From assembly GCA_015233115.1 (NCBI GenBank), contig JADFYJ010000001.1, positions 195,084 to 259,083 on the forward strand: a stretch of 64,000 bases of DNA, in the 5' to 3' direction. This document shows, in pieces, positions 1,708 to 63,751 of the stretch. Position numbers and translations under genes: made by a program. The DNA is from Candidatus Omnitrophota bacterium (GTDB lineage Bacteria > Omnitrophota > Gorgyraeia > Zapsychrales > Zapsychraceae). The notes beneath the pieces were generated by a model. The model was not told where the DNA came from, ran no database searches, and saw only the letters and a list, made by a program, of their open reading frames with translations. Every line of letters starts with the position of its first letter. The stretch's first letter is position 1.

Positions 1708-4434
1708 ATGAGTAAAAAATTAACTTTTGTGTTTTCACTAGCAATTTTATTTGCTATGTACATTTCCGCCTTGCCGACGCCGGTTATGGCCGGAGGTGTT
1801 CCTTTATCTGATGGACAAATGGATCAAATTGCAGCAGGTGAATGGGTTTTGGCCTCTGCCGCTACTACCAAAAATTCATTAAAAGTTAAAGATCAGTCAC
1901 AAAATACGATTAAAGGTATCAGTAACGCAAACAGTGTGGATAGTGCTGTTAATGGACAGACCAACGTCAGTAATGCTGTCGAAGGAGCTGTAGATATTAC
2001 ACAAAGCAATAATACTTCGGTGACTAATCGTGCAAAGCCAAAAGATACTTTTAGTCTTGATGCCTCCCACAAAACAGTTACCGCCGTTAATGAGAAGGGC
2101 ACGACTACCTATAATAATGTGACCACTTCAAAAATCGATAATTCTAGTGCTGAAACTAAATCAGTTTCTGATACGGAATCGTTAAATACTTCTTCTACAG
2201 ATAAGGCGAGTTCTTCACTGAATGAAACTTCAAATAAAGCGGACAGCCTTAAGACTGGTTTTTCTGATGTTGAAGTCAGTGGTTCTTCAGCAAGCACTAA
2301 TTCTGCAAGTGCCAGCAATTTTTCAAAAGATAAAAGCGCAAGTTCAGCAGAAAATTTTGATTTAGATAAAGGTAAATCTGCTTCTAGCGAAGCTTCCCAA
2401 AGTGCTAATGATGCATCGAAAAATACCGCTAGTGCGAATAACAGCGCTTCGTCTTCTGATAAATTTAATTTAGACGGAAGTTTGAACGCAGGCACAACTA
2501 GCGCATCACAAAGTGCTTCGAAAAGTGCTGACAGTGTAGCAGCAATTTCCAGCAAATCTTCAAGTGATTCTGCTGCAGCCAATGAAAATGCCTCAACTTC
2601 GGATAAAGCAAATTTGGATGGTAGTTTAAGCGCCAGCGAAGGAAATGCTTCACAGAGTGCTGCTCAAAGTGCGAAAAGTCAATCAGCCAATTCCAGCAAC
2701 TCAGCTAGCAATAGTGCTGCAGCCAATGAAAATGCTTCATCTATGGATAAAGCTAATTTGGACGGCAGTTTGAGCGCTGGATCTGCAACGGCATCGCAGA
2801 GTGCTTCAAATAAATCAGACAGTGTAGCTGCTAATGCCAGCAAATCGTCTAGCGATACTGCTGCTGCAAACAACAATGCGACATCATCGGACAAAGCTAA
2901 TGTAGATGGAAGTTTGTCAGCATCGAAGTCAGCAGCCTCACAAAGCGCAGCGCAAAATGCGGATTCATCGGCATCGAACAATAGCGCAGCTGATTCATCT
3001 TCGAGCACAAAAGATGCCAGTCTGAACGTAGCAGCTACAGGAACAAGCAATAAAACTGCCTCATCTTCATCTGATGCTGTTTCCCAGGATGGTGTGAGCA
3101 CGTCTCAAAAGGATGCTAGCGCCAATCAATCCGCTGCACCTGGTTCAGTCACATCAGGGTCAACATCTTCAACAGCAGCCACAACTGGCAATGATGAAAA
3201 TTCGGGTACTGTTACTCAGAATTCTGCCACAGACACAGCCAATTCATCAAAAACGGTTGGTGTTAATGCCTCAGGCACACTTGACACGACTAAGCAATCA
3301 GGGTCGCAATCAGCTGATTCTGCAGCCGCAGATAGTTCTGCTTCAAATTCATCAGCAGCATCTAAAAATAGCAATCTTGATGCTTCATTAAGTGCAAGTA
3401 AAGACAAAGAAGCTTCTAGCGGAGCAGCATCATCATCCGCAAGTCAGGATGCAGCAAATGCTTCATTGACAAAAGATAAAACAGCGTCAGATTCAGCTTC
3501 AGCATCGGATAATAAGAATCTTGATGCTTCATTAAGTACAAGCAAAGATAAAGAAGCAACCAGCCAATCAGCTTCATCTTCAGCTGATCAATCTGCAGCT
3601 AATGCGGCATCGGCTAAAGATGCATCTGCTTCAAATTCAGCATCAGCATCTGAGAGTAAAAACCTAAATGCGACTTTAACCACGAGCAAAGATAAGGAAG
3701 CATCTAGCGCATCAGCATCATCTTCAGCTGATCAATCAGCAGCTAATGCCTCTTTAACTAAAGATAAATCTGCTTCAGATTCCGCGTCAGCTTCTGATTC
3801 GAAAAATTTGAATGCAGCGTTAACTGTTGGAAAAGATAAAGAAGCTGCTAACGCTTCAGCTTCTGCATCTGATCAAGAAGCATCTTCTGCAAGTCAATCG
3901 GCAGACAAAAGTGCTTCTCAAGATAGCTTATCTGTTACCAAAGGCAAAAGTGCAAACTCAGCTTTATCCGTAAAAGATACGAAGAGCGATAATTCTGCTT
4001 CTGCATCACAGGATAGCGCTTCAAAAAATGTTCAAGCAACGGTAGATGCTTCAAAAACTGATAATAAAGCGAAAACTGAAACATCAAGTTCAGAAAATGA
4101 CGCTTCTTTAGCAGCCTCGAAAACAACAACCAAAGCTGAAAATGAAACAAATACAAAAGTCAAAACTGATACTGTCGATCAAGGTGTGATCGTTGATTCA
4201 GCAAAAAATAATACGAATACTGAAGATGATTCAGTACAAATTGATGAGACTAAGACTGGTTCAGTGACCAATGAATTAGTTGTCTCAGGCGGTTCGCAGT
4301 CAGACATTATGGCAGTCAGCAACTTGAACGCAGTTGGTTCAGCTGTAGCCATACAAGCTAACGTTGCTAATTCCAGCACTGTATCTGGAAATATTTCACA
4401 ATCCAACGTGGCTACCGTAGCAAATGGTATTTAG
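1708..4434 (+). CDS. Exported Ser/Ala/Asp/Lys-rich repeat protein (putative fibre or surface-layer subunit). Its termini are paralogous to those of the 4517..5392 protein.
   Basis: ATG at 1708 preceded by GAGGTG; the ORF track start at 1687 is in frame. N-terminal hydrophobic signal-like segment, then LSDGQMDQIAAG. Interior made of two families of imperfect tandem repeats of about 48 and 40 aa. C-terminal N/V/S/Q-rich segment (AVSNLNAVGSAVAIQANVANSS...) aligns with the C-terminus of the next protein. Confidence 0.7.
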   Translation: MSKKLTFVFSLAILFAMYISALPTPVMAGGVPLSDGQMDQIAAGEWVLASAATTKNSLKVKDQSQNTIKGISNANSVDSAVNGQTNVSNAVEGAVDITQSNNTSVTNRAKPKDTFSLDASHKTVTAVNEKGTTTYNNVTTSKIDNSSAETKSVSDTESLNTSSTDKASSSLNETSNKADSLKTGFSDVEVSGSSASTNSASASNFSKDKSASSAENFDLDKGKSASSEASQSANDASKNTASANNSASSSDKFNLDGSLNAGTTSASQSASKSADSVAAISSKSSSDSAAANENASTSDKANLDGSLSASEGNASQSAAQSAKSQSANSSNSASNSAAANENASSMDKANLDGSLSAGSATASQSASNKSDSVAANASKSSSDTAAANNNATSSDKANVDGSLSASKSAASQSAAQNADSSASNNSAADSSSSTKDASLNVAATGTSNKTASSSSDAVSQDGVSTSQKDASANQSAAPGSVTSGSTSSTAATTGNDENSGTVTQNSATDTANSSKTVGVNASGTLDTTKQSGSQSADSAAADSSASNSSAASKNSNLDASLSASKDKEASSGAASSSASQDAANASLTKDKTASDSASASDNKNLDASLSTSKDKEATSQSASSSADQSAANAASAKDASASNSASASESKNLNATLTTSKDKEASSASASSSADQSAANASLTKDKSASDSASASDSKNLNAALTVGKDKEAANASASASDQEASSASQSADKSASQDSLSVTKGKSANSALSVKDTKSDNSASASQDSASKNVQATVDASKTDNKAKTETSSSENDASLAASKTTTKAENETNTKVKTDTVDQGVIVDSAKNNTNTEDDSVQIDETKTGSVTNELVVSGGSQSDIMAVSNLNAVGSAVAIQANVANSSTVSGNISQSNVATVANGI

Positions 4435-5429: not shown

Positions 5430-6119
5430 ATGAATAAAAAAGTTCTAACCACAATTTTGTTTTGTTTTCTTTCTTTAGTGTTCGCTAATTATTGTTTTGC
5501 GTCAGTTTTTTTCGTTGGAGGGATGCGATTTAATAAAAAGTTAATGCCGTTACGTGAAATTAAAAGAGAACACGTGGTTATGCAGAATTTTGATTTTAGC
5601 TGTGGAGCTGCGGGCTTGTCGACATTATTGAACTATTACCTTGGCAACCCAATCTCTGAAAGTGTCATTATTAAAACTCTTTTAAAGACTGTTCCGTTAC
5701 AAAAAATACGTCAACGGCGCGGGTTTTCCCTCTATGATTTAAAAAATTTCGCAAAATCAAAAGGATACATCGCGACAGGCTATAAAATGGATATTGATTT
5801 TTTAAAAAAACTTCATAAACCGGTTTTAGTTCCGATTAAATTTAGGAATTTCCGCCATTTTGTTATTATCAAAGCTGTAGTAGCTGATCATGTTCTTATA
5901 GCAGATCCAGCTGCCGGAAATACTTCAATGACGATAGATCAATTTAATAAACTTTGGATAGACGGCATATCTTTGCTCGTAGAAGATCCGCGAAAAAAAT
6001 CTAGTGGTTTTCAGACGAATTTCGACGGAAAAGATTTGTTAATAACAGATCACAAAATGATTGGACGGATTCTAAATCCTGACCTGATTCGCACAACAGT
6101 TTATCCGGGAGAATTTTAA
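5430..6119 (+). CDS. Standalone peptidase C39-like domain protein (papain-fold cysteine peptidase of the double-glycine-leader processing family) with an N-terminal signal/TM segment.
   Basis: The Cys motif FDFSCGAAGLSTLLNYY and the downstream HFVIIKAV...DPAAG (His/Asp) resemble C39 catalytic motifs. There are no ABC transporter domains. It is 229 aa. Confidence 0.6.
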   Translation: MNKKVLTTILFCFLSLVFANYCFASVFFVGGMRFNKKLMPLREIKREHVVMQNFDFSCGAAGLSTLLNYYLGNPISESVIIKTLLKTVPLQKIRQRRGFSLYDLKNFAKSKGYIATGYKMDIDFLKKLHKPVLVPIKFRNFRHFVIIKAVVADHVLIADPAAGNTSMTIDQFNKLWIDGISLLVEDPRKKSSGFQTNFDGKDLLITDHKMIGRILNPDLIRTTVYPGEF

Positions 6120-6274
6120 ACTTATTGTAAGGAGGTCCCGCTACGGCCGCTAGGACGCGGCCTTGCTTGAACAGCAAGCTTCGCGTTGCTCAGCTTCGCG
6201 GGATAAATTCGTGCGGCTGACTTGATGTCGCGATAAATCGCTCCATAAGTCAGGCACTCATTATAGGAGACAAC
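6120..6274 (+). other. GC-rich, highly self-complementary intergenic island. Candidate structured 5' leader or small RNA.
   Basis: Nested inverted repeats: CCCGC...GCGGG, GCTTG-AACAG-CAAGC, CTGACTT...AAGTCAG and GCGAT-AA-ATCGC. Local GC is far above the window average. Confidence 0.3.
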
Positions 6275-7564
6275 ATGGTTAAGCTTAAACTCAACGTTGG
6301 GAATACAGTTTTAATTATTTTATGCCTGTTTTTTGTTCTGGGAGAAGCAAAAATTACTAACCGGTTGGCTGAGAATAAGTACCAAAAACTGGCTCAAACT
6401 TTAAAAGCTGACATTTTGCGGGAATTGAAAAATAATATTAAAAATGAGGTATGGCAGGAAATACTACATAATCACAAAAAAAATTTTATCCAAGAAAAGG
6501 CAAATCTAGCGGATAGTGATATTTTTACTCTTAATCAGGGGAATTTGAACGATGAAGATTTAGATCAATATTTTGCCGGTAATGAAACGCCGAAGGCTTT
6601 AGGAATTAATTCTGGATATACAAAATTAGCGTTACAAAAATCAGCAGACGAACCTTCTTCGTCAACTCTTCAGACCGGAACAGGTGAAATTTCCGGCGGA
6701 AATAAACGTGAGTTACCCGCTTCACTTCAAAAAACTTTTGAAGAACGCGGCAGCATGTTACTTCCCAAAGGAAAATTTCAATTAGAACCAAATTTTACTT
6801 ACGCTCATTTTTCGTCCAACCGTATTAACATTCAAGGCTTCAGTATCCTTCCGGTACTTGTGATAGGAGATATCTCTGTCCAAGAAGTGAAACGGGATGT
6901 GTTTATTAATACATATTCTTTACGATATGGACTTTTAAATAATTTACAGGCTGAAATTAAGGTTCCAGGACGGTTTGAACATGATTTAATCAGCACTTCC
7001 ACAACGAGTGAGACGACCCGTAATCATGGAGGACTAGGTGATGTGGAATTAGGACTTAGCCGTCAAATTGGTTGGGAGCACGGAGTTTGGCCTGATTTGA
7101 TTGCCGCCTTTGCTGTAAAAACACCTTCAGGATTAGAACCATATAATCATTCGATTGCTCTCGGTACAGGGCATTGGGCAGCTCGTGGATCGTTGATCGC
7201 GGCAAAATCCAGTGACCCAGCCGTGGTTTTTGGATGCCTCAGTTACACATATAATTTTGCCAGAAACGGGATTGAAAATTACGGTGATGTTAAGCCCGGA
7301 GATACTATTGCGTACAGTTTAGGAACAGCTGTGGCATTAAGTTACAAAGTCGCGCTTAATTTAGCTTTTGACCAAAGCTTAACTACTAAGATGAATAGAA
7401 ATGGGTCACCGGTGGTTGATTCATTCATGAACTCCGCAGACTTAAAAGCTGGATTAAATTGGGTTATTGATGATAAAAAAGCCGTGGATTTTTCCGTCAG
7501 TATGGGTTTAACCAAAGATTCGCCGGATTTTACAGTTGAAATAAGAATACCAATATCATTCTAA
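6275..7564 (+). CDS. Putative outer-membrane beta-barrel protein with an N-terminal coiled-coil-like periplasmic region.
   Basis: Signal-like N-terminus. K/E/L-rich heptad-like stretch at residues 30-90. C-terminal alternating amphipathic segments ending in ...IRIPISF, a terminal aromatic residue typical of OM barrels. It is 429 aa. Confidence 0.5.
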   Translation: MVKLKLNVGNTVLIILCLFFVLGEAKITNRLAENKYQKLAQTLKADILRELKNNIKNEVWQEILHNHKKNFIQEKANLADSDIFTLNQGNLNDEDLDQYFAGNETPKALGINSGYTKLALQKSADEPSSSTLQTGTGEISGGNKRELPASLQKTFEERGSMLLPKGKFQLEPNFTYAHFSSNRINIQGFSILPVLVIGDISVQEVKRDVFINTYSLRYGLLNNLQAEIKVPGRFEHDLISTSTTSETTRNHGGLGDVELGLSRQIGWEHGVWPDLIAAFAVKTPSGLEPYNHSIALGTGHWAARGSLIAAKSSDPAVVFGCLSYTYNFARNGIENYGDVKPGDTIAYSLGTAVALSYKVALNLAFDQSLTTKMNRNGSPVVDSFMNSADLKAGLNWVIDDKKAVDFSVSMGLTKDSPDFTVEIRIPISF

Positions 7565-11190: not shown

Positions 11191-11194
11191 AAAC

Positions 11195-11280
11195 TGTCAT
11201 TCCCGCGAAAGCGGGAATCCATAAAAAATTTTTAGATTTTTTTATTAATGGATCCCCGACTAAAGCTCTCGGGGATGACA
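11195..11280 (+). repeat. Inverted pair of ATTCCC-N8-GGGAAT-type hairpins (TGTCATTCCCGCGAAAGCGGGAATCCA ... TGGATCCCCGACTAAAGCTCTCGGGGATGACA) flanking an A/T spacer. Same family as 35674..35700.
   Basis: Read directly. There is a near-identical copy after the znuA-like gene. Confidence 0.6.
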
Positions 11281-33600: not shown

Positions 33601-33731
33601 TGGTCGGTGGCGTTACAGTTTCAACTTTCTTAACTTTATTTGTTGTGCCGTGCGCGTATGAACTATTCTCAAAAATCGAGCGCAAAAATTATAAAGAAGA
33701 AAAAAACGAAGAACAAAACACGTCACAATGA
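30630..33731 (+). CDS. RND efflux permease.
   Basis: 1033 aa; 12 TM helices and two large periplasmic loops; IVDDAIMVLENI motif. Confidence 0.9.
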   Translation: MTLSDISIKNPVFAWMLMLGILVFGFIGFQRLGVSQMPDVDFPIVSVSVTWEGAAPEVMETDVTDVLEDAVMSVEGIKDVTSVSKQGQSQLTIEFNLNRNIDAALQDVQTKIAQAQRNLPTDIDPPIVTKTNPEDQPIMWVTYSGDKPIKELSKYVFETLKDQFTAVPGVGTIQLGGYVDPNLRVWLNAKKMQDKEITVEDILGTINTQHVDQPAGYIDTGVKEINVRVYGEATTPEEFQNITIPQRVRGGPVWNNLQLKDIATVEDGLADIRRIARTSGQPCIGMGIIKQRGSNAVKVAEAVKQRMKDLENRLPANTKLNLVFDSTQFIKDSVNELKFNLLLSVLLTSMVCFFFLGSWTATLNVLLAIPTSVMGAFVVLYFLGFTINTFTMLGLSLVIGIIVDDAIMVLENISRYQEQGLARKAAAIIGARQITFAALAASIAILAIFIPVIFMEGIVGKFFYQFGVTISVAVMFSLLEALTIAPMRCSQFLDVGHTTRLGKVVDGFMHWLRSSYRSILAFLLNHPGKVLIVAILIFAGSLQLNKLIKKEFVPSQDQSRFIARLTTPLGSSLDTTNAVFKKAETFFLQKPEVDKIFASVGGSQVNQGIIFVTMKPRDQRPMINGHHETQLEFMENVRKPLNKIPGMQRAVIQDLSQSAFTAKRGFPVEFTVQGPDWDKLGVYSQELMKKMKESGTMSDIDTDYQLGMPELQIHPDRLKAAAHGVSIGSIADTINSMIGGLRVGKYTSNGKRYDIRVRLTGADRSKTEDIDNIWIRNQYGELVRLSDVTTAEVKPTLFSVTRASRQRAVSIFANPSQGHSQQEALDTVTKLAKTVLPQDYHVVLSGGAKAYKESFQGLIFTLILGIFVAYMVLATQFNSFLHPFTVLLALPFSVTGAFLALYLSGHSVNLYSMIGLILLMGIVKKNSILLVDFTNERRREGLNVKDALLEACPVRLRPILMTSIATVAAAIPLSLAIGPGSEVMVPMAVSVVGGVTVSTFLTLFVVPCAYELFSKIERKNYKEEKNEEQNTSQ

Positions 33732-33986
33732 CACAAAGTCACAAGGTCACAAAGGAAAACTTTGTAAAAAACGAAACGAGCAATAATTGACGTTAAAAAT
33801 GATCTTATTTAAAAATATAACAAAACAATATTACACGACGCTCTAGCAAAATGACGAATCCCATAAAAAATTTAATTTAATTTTGATATTTTTGTTTATT
33901 TAAATTTCGCGTAATGTGTTATTCTGTTTATCGTTTTATTAATCTTTACTACCCTTTGTGACTTTGTGTCCTTGTGACATTGTGAC
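33721..33986 (+). repeat. MITE-like element, copy A: terminal inverted repeats built from GTCACAA(G/A)G direct repeats, flanking an A/T-rich core.
   Basis: Left arm CGTCACAATGACACAAAGTCACAAGGTCACAAAGG overlaps the RND stop codon. Right arm CCTTTGTGACTTTGTGTCCTTGTGACATTGTGAC. Conserved sub-terminal AAAACTTTGTAAAAAACGAAAC and TTAATCTTTACTACC. Confidence 0.7.
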
Positions 33987-34030
33987 TTTTAAAAATTAAG
34001 CCAACCCTTAAAACAAAAGGATTCAAAGCT

Positions 34031-35648: not shown

Positions 35649-35673
35649 TGTATTAAATATTTTTATATATCAC

Positions 35674-35700
35674 TGTCATTCCCGCGAAGGCGGGAATCCA
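35674..35700 (+). repeat. ATTCCC-N8-GGGAAT hairpin repeat (TGTCATTCCCGCGAAGGCGGGAATCCA), same family as 11195..11221.
   Basis: Near-identical to the copy after the enolase gene. Sits just after the stop codon of the upstream gene. Confidence 0.6.
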
Positions 35701-38468: not shown

Positions 38469-38664
38469 TCCTATATCTTTAGGGCCCCGAAGGATATATT
38501 TTAAGCCGAATTTCTGACCTTCAAGGAAGCGGGAGATACCAGCAGGGGGGTGAATCTCATGTAACATGAGAGGGATAGCTGCCATCCTAACCCATCAACT
38601 AATCTCGCAGGCTAGGCAGTATTTTTTTATTAGTTCAAGCTTTAAATATTTTTTGTGGGGGATA

Positions 38665-47611: not shown

Positions 47612-49237
47612 ATGTTTTGTTTTCAATGTCAGGAAACTGTACGTAATCAAGGCTGTACAATTCGCGGAGTATGCGGTAAACCAGATCAAACCGCAAATCT
47701 ACAGGATCTAATTGGTTATGTGTGTAAAGGGATTTCATTTTTAGCCGAAAAAGGGACACCTGACCTGGCTGTTGGTCGCTTTGTCGCCCGTGCCATGTTT
47801 TCTACGATCACCAACGCGAATTTTGATGATGACCGCATGATTGCGATTATCAAAGAAGGCTTAACCGTCCGGGATGCTTTAAAACAAAAAATCTGCAGCG
47901 GCGGATGTAGTTGTTCAGTACCTGATTGCGTATCATGGACTGCAAATACCAACGAAGCCTTACTAGAAAAATCTAAAACTGTCGGTGTTTTAGCCACTTC
48001 CAATGAAGATGTGCGGTCATTACAACAACTTTTAATTTATGGGATCAAAGGGATATCGGCGTATGCCACTCATGCCTCAGTCCTTGGCTATGAAGATCCT
48101 ACAATTTTTAATTTTATCTTTGAGGGATTAGCTTCAACTGTAAAAAGCCTTCCTGTTGATGAAATGGTAGGCTTAGTTATGAAATGCGGACAAACGGCTG
48201 TAACGACCATGGCTTTATTAGACAAAGCTAATACCTCAACGTATGGCAAACCCGAAATTACTAAAGTAAATATCGGTGTCCGAAAAAATCCGGGAATTCT
48301 TATATCTGGGCACGATTTAAAAGATATGGAAGAGCTTCTTAAACAAACCGAAGGGACAGGCGTGGATGTTTATACGCACAGTGAAATGCTCCCTGCCAAT
48401 TATTACCCAGCGTTTAAAAAATATTCACATTTTGTAGGAAATTACGGCGGCTCCTGGTGGCATCAAAATGATGAATTTGAATCATTTAACGGGCCGATAT
48501 TAATGACTACCAACTGTATCATACCTGTCAAAGAATCATATAAAAATCGTTTTTTTACGACCGGCATGGCTGGATACCCAGGCGTAACGCATTTACCTGA
48601 ACCCCAAGCAGGAAAACCTAAAGATTTTTCGGAAATTATAACTTTAGCTAAAAAATGTTCATCTCCGAAAGAGCTGGAAACCGGTGAAATTGTTGGAGGT
48701 TTTGCCCACGATCAAATTTTAGCTTTGGCGGATACAGTCGTAGCCGCTGTCAAATCAGGAGCAATTAAACGGTTTGTGGTCATGGCAGGATGTGACGGCC
48801 GGTTTACTACCCGCAAATATTTCACTGATGTCGCAGAAACCTTACCCAAAGACACGATTATTCTCACTGCCGGATGCGCAAAATACCGGTATAACAAACT
48901 TAAATTAGGCGATATCGGCGGAATACCGCGTGTTTTGGATGCGGGACAGTGCAATGATTCATACTCCTTAGCTCTGGTGGCGCTGAAACTTAAGGAAGTA
49001 TTCGGATTGCAGGATGTCAATGAACTTCCTTTGTCATTTGATATCGCATGGTATGAACAAAAAGCAGTCGCAGTTTTATTAGCTGTTTTATCGTTAGGAT
49101 TCAAAAATATTCGGCTTGGGCCAACCTTACCGGCGTTTTTGTCTCCTAATATTGCTAAAGTTTTGGTTGAGAAATTCGATATTAAACCCACTACAGAAGC
49201 GGAAACTGATGTCGCAGCTATGATGGCAGGTAAATAA
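47612..49237 (+). CDS. hcp: Hybrid cluster protein / hydroxylamine reductase.
   Basis: N-terminal MFCFQCQET...CGK cubane motif and the typical Hcp length, with conserved motifs throughout. Confidence 0.92.
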
Positions 49238-49240
49238 AAA

Positions 49241-49423
49241 GGTCACAAGGACACAAAGTCACAAGGACACAAAGTCACAAGGTCACAAAGGTAAAATAAT
49301 TATTAAAATGCGATTAACCAAAAACATGAATGATTTTGACATGAAAGAAAATAATTGTTTTTTAAATATTTTTTTATTTTTATGTTTATTCGTTGTTTTA
49401 CGTGTGACCTTGTGACTTGTGGC
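49241..49423 (+). repeat. MITE-like element, copy B: GTCACAAGG-repeat terminal inverted repeats.
   Basis: Left arm GGTCACAAGGACACAAAGTCACAAGGACACAAAGTCACAAGGTCACAAAGG begins 4 nt after the hcp stop. Right arm is CGTGTGACCTTGTGACTTGTGG. Confidence 0.65.
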
Positions 49424-49436
49424 TTTTCAATAAAAA

Positions 49437-49461
49437 GCCGTCTATGATAGACGGCTTTTTT
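49437..49461 (+). terminator. Rho-independent terminator.
   Basis: GCCGTCTA-TGA-TAGACGGC followed by TTTTTT. Confidence 0.7.
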
Positions 49462-49865
49462 GTGTTACCTAATCCAAGAAGAGACTGAGCACCATTCTTA
49501 GATCAGGAACTGCGCCTTACGCGAAATCGGCTGTATCGCCTTTGCTAAATAGCGTAAGGTTAATGCAGACACTCAAACTTTAAATATAAAAAGATCGGGT
49601 TTGAGAACATTAAACCGTATTTTTTAATCCAAGCCCACGGTTAATAATGATTCTCATCTTGAGCATGGCCATTCATAAATTTACACATTTATGAAAGGCT
49701 CATTTTTTCGTGCTCGTACCCGATCGTTATCAAAGATCTTATCTATTTTTAGTATAACGAATGAAACAAAAATATATATAGGACTAAAGTTTCATTGATC
49801 CGTAATTTTTCTTGTGATTATGGCGTAGTTATGCTAATTTTTGAGGTTAAATTAAGAGGAGACTT

Positions 49866-51560
49866 ATGAAAAAATTAGCCCTAAGTATGCTGCTTCTTTT
49901 TATTCCAGCCATGTCAAAGGCAGCGATATATGACTTGGAACCAATAAAAATTTATAGTTTGAACAATAACGGCCAAGATGCAGCTAATACTCAAAACATC
50001 CCCAACAGCTCATCTGGCGTAGATATCCAAACCCGGGTTGATGAAGGCATTCTCCAGGATATTTCAATCCGGGGCGGCACTTTTGAAGACGCGGATGTAC
50101 GGATGAACGGTGTCAATTTAGACAATCCGCAGACTGGCCACTTCAACTTGGCTTTGCCGATAGTATCGACAGATATTATCAATAGTAAAGTTGACCTTAA
50201 CGGCCAATATATTGATTACAATCTCAAAATGCCCCAAAAAAATGAGGCCATGGTTCGGGTTTCTGCCGGAAATGGCGGATACGCGGATACATTGATATCA
50301 GCTTCTTTTGGAAAAAATAATACTTTCAACCGTTTCTCGTATGAAGGTATGCGTACTGACGGACTTTTACCCCAAACTGATGCCGATAAAAATGCGGTTT
50401 CCTATACTTTTTTTCATGACGCGGATTTTATGACTTCGAAAATTTATGCTTCATATCTAAATAAAAATTATGGAGCAGGCGGCGCGTACGGCGCTCCCTG
50501 GTATATGGCAGAAGAAGAGCATCTTGAGCAGCATTATTTAATGAGCCAGCTGACATTTAAACAAAATTTAGATCTTGAACTCACGCCATATATTTACCGG
50601 ACTGATGATACATTTTTTTTGAACCGTGATGATCGTACTCATAATCGCAATGACCACACCATGTATGTTTATGGAAATAATGCTAAATCTTTTTTTCTTG
50701 ATCGCTTATTTTATGGCGAATTAGATGTGCGGGAAGAAAGTATTGATTCAACGAATTTACTGGAACATAACCGGTTGGTATATGAAATGGGTTTGGGCCA
50801 GGAAGAAAAACAATTTGGAAAATTCGGTTACAACTTTTACGGTGGGTTATTATCATTAGACGGATATCCTTATAAATTTACACCCAAAGCCGGCATATTC
50901 TATGATGTGGCTCAAGGCTGGCGCGTCACTTTAGACGCGGCTAGAAAATATCGTCAACCATCATTTACAGAGCTATATTATTATTCTCCATCAAGTCATG
51001 GCAACAATACTTTAGTGCCCCAGCAATCGTCTAATTATGAATTAGGATTGACACGTAAATCTTCCGGATGGTTGTGGCGGGTTAACGGCTTTTATCGGCA
51101 TCAGGAAAATACAATTGATTGGGTAAAAAATAATAGCGATACTTTTTATCGCGCTATTAATGCCGGTCAATTAGAGGCCAGAGGATTTGATCTTAAATGG
51201 CAATACGACGCAAATTGGAAATTTTTAAAACGAATATCAGCAGAATATACCGGATTATTTCTCAATAAACAAAATAATTGGGATATGTCAAAATACGCGT
51301 TCGAATATTTGCAGGACCGTCTGGTATGTAAATTCGAACAATCAATAGGAAAATGGGACTTTGATGTGTCATATATTTATGAAGACCATATTAGTCAAAA
51401 AGGGCGCTCGCTGGTTAATGGCGGGGTGGTTTATAAAATGGCGCCGCGTAAGAGTATATTTTTAAGAGTGGATAATCTTTTTGATTTTGATTATTATGAA
51501 TTGCCGTATATAAGAGGAACCCCGGTTTCGGTTAAGGGGGGAATGGAGATAAAATTTTGA
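49866..51560 (+). CDS. TonB-dependent outer-membrane receptor (short, BtuB-sized).
   Basis: Signal peptide. Plug-domain motifs (DISIRGGTFEDADVRMNGVNLDNPQTGHFNL). C-terminal ...GGMEIKF with terminal Phe. GAGGAG RBS. Confidence 0.65.
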   Translation: MKKLALSMLLLFIPAMSKAAIYDLEPIKIYSLNNNGQDAANTQNIPNSSSGVDIQTRVDEGILQDISIRGGTFEDADVRMNGVNLDNPQTGHFNLALPIVSTDIINSKVDLNGQYIDYNLKMPQKNEAMVRVSAGNGGYADTLISASFGKNNTFNRFSYEGMRTDGLLPQTDADKNAVSYTFFHDADFMTSKIYASYLNKNYGAGGAYGAPWYMAEEEHLEQHYLMSQLTFKQNLDLELTPYIYRTDDTFFLNRDDRTHNRNDHTMYVYGNNAKSFFLDRLFYGELDVREESIDSTNLLEHNRLVYEMGLGQEEKQFGKFGYNFYGGLLSLDGYPYKFTPKAGIFYDVAQGWRVTLDAARKYRQPSFTELYYYSPSSHGNNTLVPQQSSNYELGLTRKSSGWLWRVNGFYRHQENTIDWVKNNSDTFYRAINAGQLEARGFDLKWQYDANWKFLKRISAEYTGLFLNKQNNWDMSKYAFEYLQDRLVCKFEQSIGKWDFDVSYIYEDHISQKGRSLVNGGVVYKMAPRKSIFLRVDNLFDFDYYELPYIRGTPVSVKGGMEIKF

Positions 51561-51608
51561 AATTGTGACAATGTAACAATGTGGCATTGAAAAATCGATT
51601 ATTGTAAA

Positions 51609-51705
51609 GCGCGCGGATTGGGCGGTTAGCATTTAAACCGAATCCTTCGCTCAAACAACCTTGGCGAAGCGCCAAGGAAACTCGCTCGGGGATTCAGTTT
51701 AAAAG
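51609..51705 (+). repeat. Roughly 95-nt structured repeat, copy 1. Conserved TCCTTCGCTCAAACA - GAAG hairpin - AACTCGCTCGGGGA with compensatory stems.
   Basis: Aligns with 58465..58555. The inner stem CCTTGGCG/CGCCAAGG and outer stem GAATCC/GGATTC differ in sequence from copy 2 but keep their pairing. Confidence 0.5.
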
Positions 51706-51775
51706 TTAACCTTGTGTTTGGGCACGCGGTTTTCTATTTTTTACATTGTCATTGTTCCTCTGTCAGGATAAAAAA

Positions 51776-58464: not shown

Positions 58465-58555
58465 GAGCGCAACGGGCGACGTTTCAACCAAGTCCTTCGC
58501 TCAAACAGCTGAGCCGAAGCGGCTCAGAACTCGCTCTGGGACTCGGTTTCCACTC
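58465..58555 (+). repeat. Roughly 95-nt structured repeat, copy 2 (see 51609..51705), in the trpGD-trpB intergenic region.
   Basis: GAGCGCAACGGGCGACGTTTCAACCAAGTCCTTCGCTCAAACAGCTGAGCCGAAGCGGCTCAGAACTCGCTCTGGGACTCGGTTT. Confidence 0.5.
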
Positions 58556-58634: not shown

Positions 58635-59843
58635 ATGTCAAAATATTTCGGACAATTTGGCGGTCAATATACTGGCGAAGTTTTAAAACCAGCTTTAGCT
58701 GAGCTTGAAGCCGCGTTTTTAAATATTTTGCCGACCGAAGAGTTTCAGAAAGAATATCATATTTTACTGCGTGATTACGTCGGACGTCCTACGCCGCTAT
58801 ATTTCGCGGAACGGACCACCAAAGACTTGAATGGCGCAAAAGTTTATATCAAATTAGAAGGACTGGCCAATACTGGCGCGCATAAGATTAACAATGCTTT
58901 AGGGCAAGTTTTATTAGCCCAAAAAATGGGAAAGACCCGGGTCATTGCGGAAACCGGAGCAGGACAACATGGTGTGGCCACAGCCGCAGCCGCAGCCAAA
59001 CTTGGACTGGCCTGCGAAGTATTCATGGGAGAAGTTGATGTTGCCCGCCAACAGCCAAATGTTTTTTTAATGAAACAATACGGTGCGAAAGTGACGCCGG
59101 TTTCTGATGGTACACGCACGCTTAAAGACGCGGTCAACCGCACCTTAAAAGAATGGGCAGGTTGTTCCTCGGACACATTATACATTTTGGGTTCAGCTTT
59201 AGGCCCTTATCCCTATCCGGATATGGTCCGCACATTTCAGCAAATTATTGGTCAGGAAATCCGCCAATCAATTTTAGAAAGGGAAGGGCGTTTACCCGAT
59301 ATGCTGATTGCCTGTTGCGGCGGAGGTTCTAATTCTATCGGCACATTTACGCCATTTATAAATGACACAGTTTCTCTTGTCGCGGTAGAGGCAGGCGGAA
59401 AGGGAAAACATTTAGGCGATCACGCGGTTCGCATGAATGGTAACGGCCATCTAGGAATTATTGAAGGCTACAAATCATTTTTTATACAAAATGGCGAAGG
59501 ACAAGTTTTACCGACCCATTCTATTTCAGCTGGTTTAGATTACGCTGGCATCGGACCAGAATTAGCCTTTTTAGGAGAGAAGGGCAGAATTAAATTCGAA
59601 AGCGCGACTGACACGGAAGTTTTAAACGCGTACCAATATTTTGCCCAAAAAGAAGGTTTATTATTCGCCATGGAATCTGCTCATGCCGCGGCCTATGCTT
59701 TGCGAATAGTTCCCAAATTGACCAAAGAAGCTATCGTCTGCATCACCATGTCTGGACGAGGCGATAAAGATATTTTTATTACGGCGAAAGAATTGTATAA
59801 AGCAGAATGGATTAAATTCTTAAAAAATGAATGTGAAAAATAA
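58635..59843 (+). CDS. trpB: Tryptophan synthase beta chain.
   Basis: GGQYTGE...RPTPLY...HKINNALGQ...GAGQHG PLP-fold signatures. Confidence 0.92.
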   Translation: MSKYFGQFGGQYTGEVLKPALAELEAAFLNILPTEEFQKEYHILLRDYVGRPTPLYFAERTTKDLNGAKVYIKLEGLANTGAHKINNALGQVLLAQKMGKTRVIAETGAGQHGVATAAAAAKLGLACEVFMGEVDVARQQPNVFLMKQYGAKVTPVSDGTRTLKDAVNRTLKEWAGCSSDTLYILGSALGPYPYPDMVRTFQQIIGQEIRQSILEREGRLPDMLIACCGGGSNSIGTFTPFINDTVSLVAVEAGGKGKHLGDHAVRMNGNGHLGIIEGYKSFFIQNGEGQVLPTHSISAGLDYAGIGPELAFLGEKGRIKFESATDTEVLNAYQYFAQKEGLLFAMESAHAAAYALRIVPKLTKEAIVCITMSGRGDKDIFITAKELYKAEWIKFLKNECEK

Positions 59844-59864
59844 AATGTGATAAAAGATGCTGTT

Positions 59865-59993
59865 GTAGGGGCGATCTCCTGATCGCCCGCACTATAAAAG
59901 ATTTATAAATTATCATTTCGGTTTTTTTTGTTTGTATTTTTGAAATAAAAAAGCGAATATTTTGTAAACGGGCGATCAGGAGATCGCCCCTAC
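59865..59993 (+). repeat. Long inverted repeat, GTAGGGGCGATCTCCTGATCGCCCG ... CGGGCGATCAGGAGATCGCCCCTAC, flanking an A/T-rich 79-bp core.
   Basis: 25-bp arms that are exact reverse complements. Each arm is also internally palindromic (GGCGATC-TCCT-GATCGCC). Confidence 0.7.
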
Positions 59994-60140
59994 GACCAAG
60001 GACGCAATGTCCGCGTAGTGCTGGAAGCTCCTGCGAGCAGTGCGACCAAGGACGCAATGTCCGCGTAGTGCTGGAAGCTCCTGCGAGCAGTGCGACCAAG
60101 GACGCAATGTCCGCGTAGTGCTGAAGCTCCTGCGAATGGC
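59994..60140 (+). repeat. 50-bp direct tandem repeat, about 2.9 copies (GACCAAGGACGCAATGTCCGCGTAGTGCTGGAAGCTCCTGCGAGCAGTGC).
   Basis: Units at 59994-60043 and 60044-60093 are identical. The third unit is degenerate, with a 1-nt deletion and a diverged end. Confidence 0.8.
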
Positions 60141-60157
60141 ACAAAAATATATTAAAA

Positions 60158-60954: not shown

Positions 60955-61221
60955 ATGTTAGGCCTTAAAGAATTAATTCAAGTATTTGTGCATATTAAGG
61001 ACGAGAAAGAGATGAAGCAACTCTTTCATGAAATCTTTACTGAAAAAGAGCGGGAAACTTTATCTGACCGCTGGCTTTTGATGAAAGAAATTCACAACAA
61101 TACTCCACAACGGAAAATCGCGGAAAAATTTCACATGAGTTTATGCAAAATCACCCGCGGAGCAAAAGTTTTACACGAAAAAAAATCTATTTGTAAAAAA
61201 ATATTGGATGCGAAAAATTAA
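60955..61221 (+). CDS. TrpR/YerC-family small DNA-binding protein.
   Basis: EKERETLSDRWLLMKEI...QRKIAEKFHMSLCKITRGAKVL aligns with the TrpR/YerC HTH, including the (A/S)TITRGS motif. Confidence 0.6.
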   Translation: MLGLKELIQVFVHIKDEKEMKQLFHEIFTEKERETLSDRWLLMKEIHNNTPQRKIAEKFHMSLCKITRGAKVLHEKKSICKKILDAKN

Positions 61222-61222
61222 C

Positions 61223-62962
61223 ATGGAACTTTTATCAGGTAATGAAGCCATCAGCCGTGGTGCCTACGAAGCAGGCGTCACTTTAGCCGCGGGATATCCG
61301 GGCACACCATCAACGGAAATTCTAGAAGATATCGTCAAATATAAAGACGCGATCTATGCGGAGTGGTCTCCTAATGAAAAAGTCGCCTTCGAAGTCGCAT
61401 CTGCCGCAGCCATGTCTGGCGCGCGATCTTTAGTCACCATGAAACACGTGGGCTTAAACGTGGCTGCTGATCCTTTGATGACTTTGGCCTATATTGGTGT
61501 TAAAGGCGGCATGGTGGTCGTAGTTGCCGATGATCCGGGCATGCATTCGTCTCAAAATGAACAAGACAGCCGTCATTACGCGCGTTTCGCGAAAGTGCCG
61601 ATGCTCGAGCCATCTGACAGCCAGGAAGCCAAAGATTTTATGCTGAAAGCCTATGAGCTTTCTGAGCAATTTGGAACACCAGTCATTTTACGTACTGAAA
61701 CCCGCATCAGCCATTCACGCAGTTTGGTTAATCTGGGAAACCGCCGTCTGGCAAACAAGGTTGATTTTATAAAAGATCAAAGTCAGTTTGTCATGGTTCC
61801 GATGTGGGCCAGAGGACGTCGCGTGCAATTGGAAGGACGTCTCAAAAAAATGCAGGAAAATGCCTGCCAATCTGACCTGAACAGAATGGAAATGAATGAC
61901 ACATCTTTCGGAATTATTACTTCTGGCGTTACTTATCAATACGTCAAAGAAGTCTGGCCCAATGCGTCAATTTTGAAACTTGGTTTTGTTTATCCTTTTC
62001 CTGACGAATTAATCCGTCAATTTGCGTCAAAAGTTAAAACCATACTGGTTGTCGAACAACTGGATAATTTTATCGAAGAACATGTCAAATCTTTAGGTAT
62101 CGCATGCCAGGGAAAAAATTATATTCCCAATATCGGCGAACTATCGCCATCAGTTTTATCTGACGTAAAAGCCAAAATGGAATCAACTTCAACCGCACAA
62201 GTACCTTTCAAAAATATTGCGGAACAACTTCCCGGCCGGCCGCCGGTGTTATGCGCAGGATGCCCGCACCGTGGAATATTCCATGCCTTAAAAAACCATG
62301 ATGTCGTTGTTGCAGGCGATATTGGTTGTTACAGTTTAGGAACTTTTAAACCATTGTCGCAATTGGATATTATTTTGTGCATGGGCGGCGGCATATCCAT
62401 GGCACACGGCATTCAAAAAGCTAGCAATGCCAAAAAAGTCGTCGGAGTTATCGGAGATTCAACGTTTTTCCATTCGGGCATAACAGGTTTGGTTGATATT
62501 GTTTATAACAAAGGCACATCAACCATTATCGTGCTGGATAACCGTATTACAGGCATGACCGGCCATCAGGAAAACCCGGGGAGCGGACTCACTTTAATGG
62601 GAGAATCAACACACGCCATTTCAATTGCGGATATAGGACGAGCATGCGGAGTAAAGCGTATTTTTGAAATCAATCCCTACGACCAGAAACATACCCAGCA
62701 AATCATTGCACAAGAGATCGCGGTTGATGAACCATCTTTGATCATTTCCAAAGCGGCCTGTGTTTTGCATGTAAAAAAACCGGTCAGCCCACAACGGTAT
62801 ATTGATCAGGATACATGCAAAAATTGCCGTCAGTGTTTAAAATTAGGATGCCCAGCCATAGAAGCAGGCGAAGGCAAGCCGCATGTTAATCCCTACACCT
62901 GCATGGGTTGTACACTGTGTCAGCAGGTTTGCAAGTTTGATTCAATACACGAGATAAAGTAA
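61223..62962 (+). CDS. iorA: Indolepyruvate ferredoxin oxidoreductase alpha subunit.
   Basis: TPP-binding 2-oxoacid:ferredoxin oxidoreductase N-terminal motifs. C-terminal 2x[4Fe-4S] (CKNCRQCLKLGCPAI, CMGCTLCQQVC). Start at the ATG at 61223, just after the preceding stop. Confidence 0.88.
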   Translation: MELLSGNEAISRGAYEAGVTLAAGYPGTPSTEILEDIVKYKDAIYAEWSPNEKVAFEVASAAAMSGARSLVTMKHVGLNVAADPLMTLAYIGVKGGMVVVVADDPGMHSSQNEQDSRHYARFAKVPMLEPSDSQEAKDFMLKAYELSEQFGTPVILRTETRISHSRSLVNLGNRRLANKVDFIKDQSQFVMVPMWARGRRVQLEGRLKKMQENACQSDLNRMEMNDTSFGIITSGVTYQYVKEVWPNASILKLGFVYPFPDELIRQFASKVKTILVVEQLDNFIEEHVKSLGIACQGKNYIPNIGELSPSVLSDVKAKMESTSTAQVPFKNIAEQLPGRPPVLCAGCPHRGIFHALKNHDVVVAGDIGCYSLGTFKPLSQLDIILCMGGGISMAHGIQKASNAKKVVGVIGDSTFFHSGITGLVDIVYNKGTSTIIVLDNRITGMTGHQENPGSGLTLMGESTHAISIADIGRACGVKRIFEINPYDQKHTQQIIAQEIAVDEPSLIISKAACVLHVKKPVSPQRYIDQDTCKNCRQCLKLGCPAIEAGEGKPHVNPYTCMGCTLCQQVCKFDSIHEIK

Positions 62963-62970
62963 ATCATGAA

Positions 62971-63147
62971 AAAGTCACAAAGTCACACGTCACAAGGTCA
63001 CAAAGGAAAATTTTGTTTAAAAACAAAACAAAAAGCGAATGATTAAATTTTGTTTTTTTAGTTTATTTATTTTTCTTATTGTTTGAGGTGTTATTTTTTT
63101 AATCTTTATTAGCCTTTGTGACATTGTGACTTTGTGTCCTTGTGACT
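62971..63147 (+). repeat. MITE-like element, copy C, lying entirely between iorA and iorB.
   Basis: Left arm AAAGTCACAAAGTCACACGTCACAAGGTCACAAAGG. Right arm CCTTTGTGACATTGTGACTTTGTGTCCTTGTGAC. The sub-terminal sequences match copy A. Confidence 0.7.
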
Positions 63148-63166
63148 TTTTAAAAAGGATCTGTTT

Positions 63167-63751
63167 ATGTCAAACGATACTATCGTTAGCATTGTTATCG
63201 CCGGTGTCGGCGGCCAGGGGATTTTGTTGGCTAGTGACATTACTGCCTTGGCAGCACTCAATGCCGGCTTTGATGTTAAAACCAATGAAGTTCATGGCAT
63301 GGCGCAAAGAGGAGGGTCAGTTATCGGGCAAATCCGCTATGGAAAAAAAGTTTACAGCCCATTAGTGAAAAAAGGCACAGCTCAAGTTTTAGCAGGGTTA
63401 GAACGGATTGAAATTTTGCGTTACGCGGAATATCTCGCGAAAGACGGATTGGCGGTCGTGAATAGCCAAATGATCATACCTGTTACAGTTTCTATGGGCG
63501 TATCAAAATATCCGGCTGACGCAAAACAATTACTTGAATCTACTTTTCCCAGATTAGTTTATTTCGATGCCGGCGTAGAAGCCGCAAAATTAGGCAACAT
63601 TAAAGCCGCCAATGTGGTGCTTTTAGGCGCCATATCCAATGGAATCGGTCTGCCATTAGAAGCATGGACTGGAGCCATCACCAAACGCGTCCCGCAAAAA
63701 TTCCTTGATCTCAACATTAAAGCGTTTATGGCAGGAAGAAATTACAAATAA
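63167..63751 (+). CDS. iorB: Indolepyruvate ferredoxin oxidoreductase beta subunit.
   Basis: IVIAGVGGQGILLASDI...EVHGMAQRGGSV is the IorB/OFOR gamma-like signature. Confidence 0.85.
   Translation: MSNDTIVSIVIAGVGGQGILLASDITALAALNAGFDVKTNEVHGMAQRGGSVIGQIRYGKKVYSPLVKKGTAQVLAGLERIEILRYAEYLAKDGLAVVNSQMIIPVTVSMGVSKYPADAKQLLESTFPRLVYFDAGVEAAKLGNIKAANVVLLGAISNGIGLPLEAWTGAITKRVPQKFLDLNIKAFMAGRNYK

Follow-up and report, generated by a model that had tools for sequence, protein, structure and literature searches.

The genes iorA and iorB, which encode the two subunits of indolepyruvate:ferredoxin oxidoreductase, are separated by a 204-nt spacer in the 64-kb stretch of a Candidatus Omnitrophica metagenome-assembled genome (MAG) analyzed here (hereafter the window; all positions follow its numbering). 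The IorB it encodes is 100% identical to an NCBI protein listed under that name, from a contig of 269 kb. Almost the whole spacer is one copy, which we call copy C, of a short repeat whose two arms are inverted arrays of an 8-base unit; copies A and B lie elsewhere in the window. Our favored explanation, held with moderate confidence, is that copy C, a foldback repeat rich in AT and without coding content, inserted into the 3′-terminal codons of iorA at an ancestral overlap with iorB, and that it is most likely selfish or near-neutral. The element appears to be similar in behavior to miniature inverted-repeat transposable elements (MITEs) and new in build: the insertion is ordinary in kind, and a hairpin repeat with arms of 8-base units looks undescribed.

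Anatomy of copy C and its relation to copies A and B

We placed iorA (61208–62962, + strand; alpha subunit, 584 aa) by its open reading frame (ORF), its Pfam POR_N, TPP_enzyme_C and Fer4 domains and a C-terminal alignment with relatives, and iorB (63167–63751, +; 194 aa) by its ORF and a Pfam POR domain. These gene boundaries define a spacer from 62963 to 63166 (+). Copy C, delimited by repeat search, Tandem Repeats Finder, folding and alignment, spans 62969–63151 (183 nt, no strand assigned) and takes up 183 of the 204 spacer bases (90%), as expected from the original prediction that the spacer is nearly all one inverted-repeat element. Its left arm (62969–63006, +), recognized from the sequence, a Tandem Repeats Finder period of 8 and the predicted pairing, reads AAAAA, GTCACAAA, GTCACAC, GTCACAAG, GTCACAAA, GG, and thus holds four units of GTCACAAR. 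An AT-rich core of 106 nt, bounded by alignments (63007–63112, no strand assigned), leads to the right arm (63113–63151, +), which was called by repeat search, Tandem Repeats Finder and the predicted fold; it reads CC, TTTGTGAC, ATTGTGAC, TTTGTGTC, CTTGTGAC, TTTTT, an inverted array with five U at its end. The repeat search resolved copy C into nested inverted pairs of 17–42 nt (75–94% complementary) and gave the right arm an 8-nt periodicity, and Tandem Repeats Finder called period-8 arrays on both arms. The GC content of the element (26% over 62966–63155) is well below that of the window (39%). A 26-codon ORF, MKKSQSHTSQGHKGKFCLKTKQKAND followed by a stop (62966–63046, +), begins 3 nt past the iorA stop codon and crosses the left arm; it is not present in copies A and B and is probably incidental.

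Allowing up to three mismatches, we counted 16 occurrences of the 17-mer AAAGTCACAAAGTCACA in the window, where 0.27 would be expected; all 16 fall at three loci. Copy A (33717–33995, 279 nt, no strand assigned; left arm 33722–33755, right arm 33953–33990) was defined by sequence, fold and alignment with the relative, and copy B (49242–49428, 187 nt, no strand assigned; six left units at 49242–49291, about 2.5 right units at 49403–49427) by sequence and fold. As had been proposed for copy C, the three are homologous: they are 86–88% identical over aligned bases, including a non-repetitive stretch of ~30 nt on the inner side of each arm, and alignment of copies A and C places such a stretch of ~30 nt of core beside each arm, the chief difference between these two being ~90 extra internal bases in A. 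The numbers of units vary among copies and arms (4–6 in left arms and 2.5–4 in right arms), as does core length (106 to ~197 nt). All copies are short (183–279 nt), have a GC content of 26–29% compared with 39% for the window, and hold no coding content beyond the incidental 26-codon frame. Because the three copies share non-repetitive subterminal sequence, we consider them related by descent rather than independent products of slippage.

Each copy begins within ~10 nt of a + strand stop codon, and two of the three lie between tightly linked co-directional genes. Copy B starts 5 nt past the stop codon of hcp (49235–49237), and a terminator hairpin of canonical form comes after it (~49432–49462). 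In addition, a degenerate solo array, TTGTGACAATGTAACAATGTGGCATT, is found at 51563–51588, 3 nt past the stop of a TonB-receptor-like ORF, and may be a decayed right arm of this repeat.

Filled and empty junctions

We compared the junctions occupied by the element with those of related genomes. The closest relative is GCA_015233195.1 (contig L001), whose IorB is 86% identical to that of the window; further iorA/iorB junctions came from three other lineages. The distance between iorA and iorB is −11 nt in the closest relative, −1 nt in L139, +2 nt in L140 and L141 and −1 nt in L142, compared with 204 nt in the window. The two genes are therefore normally adjacent or overlapping (−11 to +2 nt in four related lineages), as the original prediction had stated, and relatives with the same spacer but no inverted repeat, which would have spoken against it, were not found: the relatives compared have no spacer. 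Copy A presents a second such case. AcrB-like and ICMT-family genes abut as TAA|ATG (0 nt) in the relative (L151 4440–4560) and stand 299 nt apart in the window, where the gap is copy A. No array of the 8-base unit type was detected in the 20.6 kb scanned of the relative's contig L001. The region of copy B is not comparable: downstream of hcp the relative (L138 11621–14596) encodes a histidine kinase as well as a response regulator, and the window (49238–49866) has copy B, the terminator, ~400 nt of non-coding DNA and then the TonB-receptor gene. Since the copies are homologous and the relative is empty at the two comparable junctions that are occupied here, we conclude from these alignments that copy C is a derived insertion at the iorA/iorB junction, and that copy A is likewise one at the AcrB-like/ICMT junction.

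A spacer of this kind might instead have grown in place, through replication slippage and hairpin-templated copying of a non-mobile sequence. The unequal numbers of units in the arms indicate that slippage clearly occurs, and growth in place would fit the lack of a clear target-site duplication. We nevertheless regard this explanation as highly improbable: three loci 13–16 kb apart share their subterminal non-repetitive sequence on both sides at the identities given above, and two independent junctions would have had to fill in this genome while the same sites in the relative are empty.

The position of copy C relative to both genes is precise. The iorA stop codon TAA (62960–62962), which may be ancestral or may have come with the insertion, lies 6 nt 5′ of the left arm, so that IorA ends in …HEIK at the left edge of the element with a length (584 aa) that is normal compared with relatives (583–585 aa). 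On the other side, AAAAAGGA (63152–63159) has its first base directly after the stem and ends 7 nt before the iorB ATG; within this stretch and one base beyond it is the iorB Shine–Dalgarno (SD) sequence, AAGGAT (63155–63160, +), 6 nt 5′ of the ATG, which we assigned by alignment with relatives and which is unpaired in the predicted fold. Each of the four relatives has GAGGAT or GAGGAG as its iorB SD, 5–8 nt before the ATG and within the last codons of iorA. The sequence resembling a ribosome-binding site (RBS) that had been noticed at the right end of the element does adjoin it but is not part of it: AAGGAT aligns with the SD of the relatives, and is thus ancestral and was left intact. At copy A, the upstream AcrB-like ORF ends within the left arm, where its stop TGA lies at 33729–33731; its product is 8 aa shorter than the orthologue, with the last three codons and the TGA supplied by the arm, and the SD of the downstream gene, AAAGGA, is kept on the right side, 9 nt before the ATG in both genomes. 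By these alignments, both insertions that could be compared struck the end of the upstream gene, a tail that is dispensable, and lie immediately 5′ of the RBS of the next gene.

The designation MITE-like, also made in the original prediction, fits the element in part. Its size, non-coding nature, AT-richness, inverted ends, multiple copies and filled and empty sites agree with it; no parent element was found in the window or the fetched loci, a unique terminal inverted repeat (TIR) is missing, the arms of copy C being tandem 8-bp arrays, and target-site duplication is ambiguous. Copy B is flanked by a 9-bp direct repeat, AATAAAAAG (49233–49241 and 49429–49437). A metagenome scan for the type of end found in the window recovered no longer element and no close relatives. 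The ends themselves read AAAAAGTCAC…GTGACTTTTT, with no GTAG or CGTC tag.

Several observations weigh against an insertion of a mobile, near-neutral element. Both flanks of copy C read AAAAAG, yet the left one may equally be the A-run of the arm, and copy A has no flanking direct repeat. No array pair in the window flanks an ORF, and neither the window nor the fetched loci yielded a transposase or a larger parent element with these ends. The family as we define it comprises only three copies, all from one 64-kb window. The closest relative is distant, with saturated synonymous sites, so that conservation of iorB bounds the age of the insertion little. Finally, the stem and its five U could be a real terminator, in which case iorB would depend on a promoter that was not found. 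In favor of a tolerated insertion, iorB is intact and conserved (86% identity to the orthologue in the closest relative, with a ratio of nonsynonymous to synonymous substitution, dN/dS, of ~0.05), and is more conserved than iorA (86% against 81% identity).

We next consider how the element compares with known repeats. Its closest architectural match is with the Foldback (FB) transposons of Drosophila, in which long terminal inverted repeats made of tandem short subrepeats surround a variable middle; however, FB transposons are eukaryotic and of kilobase scale, bear no known sequence relation to the element and have a different or unknown transposase. BOX elements of Streptococcus pneumoniae are intergenic and hairpin-forming and contain a variable number of internal tandem modules, but their 45-nt boxB module lies between unique boxA and boxC sequences, and they are not known to have inverted arrays of 8-nt units such as those of copy C. 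The intervening sequences of 23S rRNA, with their small genes (four-helix-bundle, PF05635; GxxExxY, PF13366), are likewise stem-flanked inserts in a transcript; unlike them, the window copies carry no gene and do not lie in rRNA. REP sequences and the BIMEs composed of them are mobilized by RAYT transposases, and intergenic REPs can protect upstream mRNA. Like copy C, they occur as intergenic palindromes in operons, for example between malE and malF. REPs are reported to be 20–40 nt long and to carry a GTAG or CGTC tag (PMC3733652); the present element, by contrast, is 183–279 nt long and lacks the tag, and no RAYT gene was seen in the 64-kb window.

The ERIC (IRU) elements of enterobacteria and the Correia (NEMIS) elements of Neisseria also share features with it. 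They too are shorter than 300 bp, non-coding, AT-rich and dispersed, and form one long stem-loop from inverted ends; they too are found between co-directional genes, sometimes fused to the ends of ORFs, with filled and empty sites among relatives. ERIC and Correia elements have, however, unique TIRs, 5′-TA-3′ termini and clear target-site duplications, whereas copy C has 8-bp arrays, A5/T5 ends and an ambiguous duplication. None of the bacterial MITEs tabulated in one survey has arms made of arrays of 8-bp units (PMC2229807).

Predicted hairpin and its bearing on the operon

Folding of the RNA from 62955 to 63175 gave −57.5 kcal/mol, compared with −36.5 ± 4.0 kcal/mol for 200 shuffled sequences (z −5.27), none of which was as stable; the long hairpin potential originally predicted for the spacer is thus borne out by calculation and is strong. 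In this predicted fold the arms of copy C (38–39 nt) pair along almost their full length, giving an imperfect stem of ~38 bp over the 106-nt core, and all bases from 63152 on, including AAAAAGGA, the SD and the AUG of iorB, are unpaired. The corresponding z-scores are −5.3 for C, −5.8 for A and −7.7 for B. Both strands of all three copies fold about equally well, A somewhat better on the − strand, and B and C on the + strand.

Five U follow directly after the last stem pairs that contain G·C, and the enclosed 106 nt are far outside the range of terminator loops; as modeled, the stem and five U of copy C look like a terminator except for this loop. A simple scan for canonical terminators, in which a GC-rich stem (5–14 bp) closes a short loop (3–8 nt) and precedes a U-tract, called none within the spacer. 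No sigma-70-like promoter was called in 62963–63166, a weak test, as the promoter rules of this phylum may differ. Among Rfam 15 families, the c-di-AMP riboswitch alone reached its gathering score in the whole window, and searches of the spacer at E ≤ 10 returned chance hits only, far under their thresholds. CRP-type TGTGA-N6-TCACA sites, DnaA boxes, integron attC cores and Chi-like octamers were each considered from the sequence and set aside as a poor fit in spacing or bases.

Upstream, a trpR-like gene (60955–61221, +; ORF and Pfam) overlaps the start of iorA by 14 nt, and the gene order trpE–GD–B–A–trpR–iorA–iorB is common to the window and the closest relative. We call iorA and iorB an operon because the order trpR–iorA–iorB is the same in that relative. 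This synteny, and the lack of a predicted promoter or terminator, are together the sole evidence in favor of co-transcription; we infer co-transcription, the mechanism of mobility and any regulatory effect from the DNA sequence.

Our reading of the locus is as follows. In the ancestor iorA and iorB would have overlapped and would probably have been translationally coupled, and the repeat would have entered this overlap immediately upstream of the iorB SD. The insertion was probably tolerated because the iorA stop came to lie at the left edge of the element with IorA of normal length, because the iorB SD and AUG would be single-stranded just 3′ of the stem, and because relatives differ from one another in the C-terminal tail of IorA in any case. 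If the genes are co-transcribed, the element would fold within the message into the ~38-bp imperfect stem with its 106-nt core and five U. A hairpin inserted at this point would abolish coupling by termination and reinitiation; with the overlap lost, iorB would have to initiate from its own accessible SD. The folded element might terminate some transcripts, act as a 3′ hairpin with a protective effect or be a target of a double-strand RNase, and any of these could shift the IorA:IorB ratio. Since two of the three copies lie within tight gene pairs, the element is unlikely to be strongly polar, and the arrangement of the copies suggests that it does not abolish downstream expression. An effect on the subunit ratio would be modest at most, and a tolerated selfish insertion is the simplest reading of the locus.

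By analogy with known elements, a double-strand RNase could plausibly act on a duplex of ~38 bp. ERIC elements are co-transcribed, and Correia elements are processed by RNase III (PMC2229807); cleavage by a double-strand RNase has been proposed for the latter (PMC2229807). Effects of RNase III or RNase E have been shown for ERIC and Correia elements, whereas the foldback repeat described here is known from sequence alone.

Copy C could also be viewed as a selected intercistronic regulator, its hairpin and five U serving as an attenuator or processing site that sets IorA:IorB stoichiometry or stabilizes the upstream message. The REP between malE and malF and ERIC elements in Yersinia play such a role. 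The predicted stem is very stable and is directly followed by five U; it begins 7 nt past the iorA stop, so that a terminating ribosome would cover its base; and the position of all three copies next to a + strand stop codon is matched by a crude survey of similar repeats elsewhere, in which 17 of 36 flanking 3′ ends of genes were no more than 30 nt from the repeat. Yet four relatives manage without any spacer, copy B has a canonical terminator of its own and would not need the hairpin, core length varies and the loop is far too long for a terminator. Moreover, both strands fold about equally, and mismatches between arms show no bias toward G·U over A·C: 81 foldbacks of similar build (described below) contain 139 G·T and 147 A·C mismatches, with no over-dispersion (P = 0.30) and no strand bias. 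Selection for such a regulatory role therefore seems unlikely to us.

An outward-facing promoter within the element might alternatively drive iorB independently of iorA. The AT-rich core does contain weak −35- and −10-like strings, and a promoter would offset the polarity that a long hairpin might otherwise cost; however, none was called in the spacer by the weak test noted above, and we consider this explanation exceedingly improbable.

Repeats elsewhere in the window and in other genomes

The window contains other repeats and structured elements that are distinct from the foldback. The trpB–trpA spacer (314 nt) has a different repeat at 59862–60142, a 28-nt inverted repeat of 96% complementarity with palindromic arms (GGGCGATC…GATCGCCC) and, after it, a 50-nt unit in three tandem copies; the corresponding spacer in the relative is 270 nt of unrelated sequence. 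A motif of ~75 nt occurs in two copies, at 51628–51702 and 58478–58552 (both +), one ahead of the ORF at 51746 and the other ahead of trpB at 58635. The motif forms one hairpin of 19 pairs, five of which differ on both sides between the copies and still pair; Rfam returned no match, and the motif may represent either a small structured RNA or a further family of repeats. The c-di-AMP riboswitch (RF00379) at 38494–38628 (+) scores 69 bits against a threshold of 38 and is full length. A 29-nt GC-rich hairpin repeat, ACTGTCATTCCCGCGAA(A/G)GCGGGAATCCA, is present at 11193–11221 and 35672–35700 with 97% identity, and three to four tandem 144-nt units of 71–76% identity at 2458–3863 are probably a repetitive Ser/Ala-rich coding region.

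Arrays resembling those of the element also occur in other genomes. We provisionally grouped as octamer-array foldbacks all loci with at least three tandem CACAANGN units, a core of at most 400 nt and then the inverted array, in that order, a definition that all three window copies fit. Scanning one genome per species for CACAANGNCACAANGNCACAAAGG yielded at least 120 loci, where about one match is expected by chance (our own calculation). The matches, among those listed, come from Chloroflexota, Verrucomicrobiota, Desulfobacterota, Planctomycetota, Bacteroidota, Cyanobacteriota, several classes of Pseudomonadota, Spirochaetota, Acidobacteriota, Nitrospirota, Gemmatimonadota, Bdellovibrionota, Lentisphaerota, Chlamydiota and the archaeon Methanothrix; overall, at least 13 phyla have 8-base arrays of the same type and the same foldback polarity, as do an archaeon and viral contigs. 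Foldbacks are present at 58 of the 120 loci listed, with a median core of 43 nt (range 11–374). Many matches lie at contig ends, a pattern to be expected of multi-copy repeats, and the arrays thus break metagenome assemblies. In viral contigs, the real unit had nine matches (eight distinct), at least five of them foldbacks, compared with one to three matches for each of three permuted-unit controls (four distinct loci), none with an inverted partner; enrichment over permuted units is thus real but modest. Cultured phages and plasmids contained solo arrays or chance matches only.

These loci vary considerably in composition. In a pair of viral contigs (L132 and L133, ~6050–6330) the unit drifts stepwise along a long run from CACAAAGG through CGCAAAGG/A and TACAAAGG to TACAAAAG and then switches to the CGAATTAA type. 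Octamer foldbacks alternate with an unrelated hairpin module in a BIME-like mosaic on the Desulfonema magnum chromosome (L005 1–420) and at a cyanobacterial locus (L023 2240–2470). Solo arrays are found on a 4.2-kb cyanobacterial plasmid, pRF1 (NC_004964.1; L149 4143–4176), as four copies of CTTTGTGA in non-coding DNA, and on a Burkholderia plasmid (NZ_CP029828.1; L150 3001–3095), as (CACAAAGG)6(TACAAAGG)5 beside an IS256-like element.

Small genes accompany about six of the 120 loci. GxxExxY (PF13366) genes are carried by or adjoin elements in Endozoicomonas, Allosphingosinicella and a Saprospiraceae MAG, and four-helix-bundle (PF05635) genes abut arrays in Opitutales. In Endozoicomonas acroporae (L056 1203–1766), a GxxExxY gene (PD-(D/E)XK, PF13366) is flanked by TTGAAC–CACAAAGG… as outer left arm and by …CCTTTGTG–GTTCAA as right arm; the locus has a second, internal left arm and looks like a gene-carrying foldback. 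More generally, an all-against-all BLAST of 4216 ORFs from 135 loci found no protein family in more than six loci and no recurrent transposase near arrays. Flanking direct repeats in 78 similar foldbacks were not in excess over a shuffled control, and none of 10 loci with similar foldbacks matched Rfam. Within the library searched, we found no paper that prints the repeat, and nothing relevant on prokaryotic foldback or octamer repeats.

Do the arms matter as structure or as sequence? In 78 foldbacks from other genomes, complementarity between the two arms of one element is barely above that between arms of different elements (0.655 compared with 0.613), and 57% of arm mismatches are of types other than G·U and A·C. 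Given this small difference, the lack of strand bias in mismatches and the lack of excess flanking repeats, the unit seems to matter more than pairing, which favors a sequence-specific, protein-binding role of the arrays. The arms might accordingly be iterated 8-bp DNA-binding sites for a transposase, a regulator of the ribbon-helix-helix type or a partition or nucleoid factor, with the hairpin as a by-product. Tandem operator repeats of 7–8 bp are typical of ribbon-helix-helix proteins, such as the met-boxes of MetJ, the heptads WATCACW of omega and the sites of ParG. The fixed polarity is consistent with this explanation, 60 cases having a TTGTG-type array within 400 nt downstream of a CACAA-type array and only 10 having it upstream, as are the solo arrays on the two plasmids described above. 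However, no recurrent gene for a DNA-binding protein or transposase was found near arrays at the 135 loci, nothing in the window ties a protein to them, and a single host regulator is hard to square with the same unit in many phyla. As an account of copy C, we therefore judge DNA-binding sites with an incidental hairpin to be doubtful, and a selfish or near-neutral insertion remains the explanation that we prefer.

The window copies differ from the common TTGAAC-CACAAAGG type in their A5/T5 ends, their unit GTCACAAR and their longer, AT-rich cores, and they and the wider foldbacks may share common descent or merely resemble each other. We tentatively raise the possibility that the Omnitrophica copies are one lineage of an undescribed, widespread class of prokaryotic repeats. 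Such a class would consist of inverted CACAAAGN arrays, always with CACAA first, around a short variable core; it would extend over at least 13 bacterial phyla, Methanothrix and viral contigs, have no regular target duplication, often lie a few bases from stop codons, keep its arms as recognition sites rather than as a hairpin and occasionally carry GxxExxY or four-helix-bundle genes.

If our preferred explanation is correct, this locus shows cleanly how a tightly coupled operon for a two-subunit enzyme survives an insertion, and the same landing pattern appears at two separate gene junctions within one 64 kb. If the wider class exists, the GxxExxY and four-helix-bundle genes would be candidates for its mobility or maintenance. 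The recurrence of this type of array across phyla is the part most worth following; should the octamer arrays prove to be one family, they would be a widespread genome component that annotation has overlooked.

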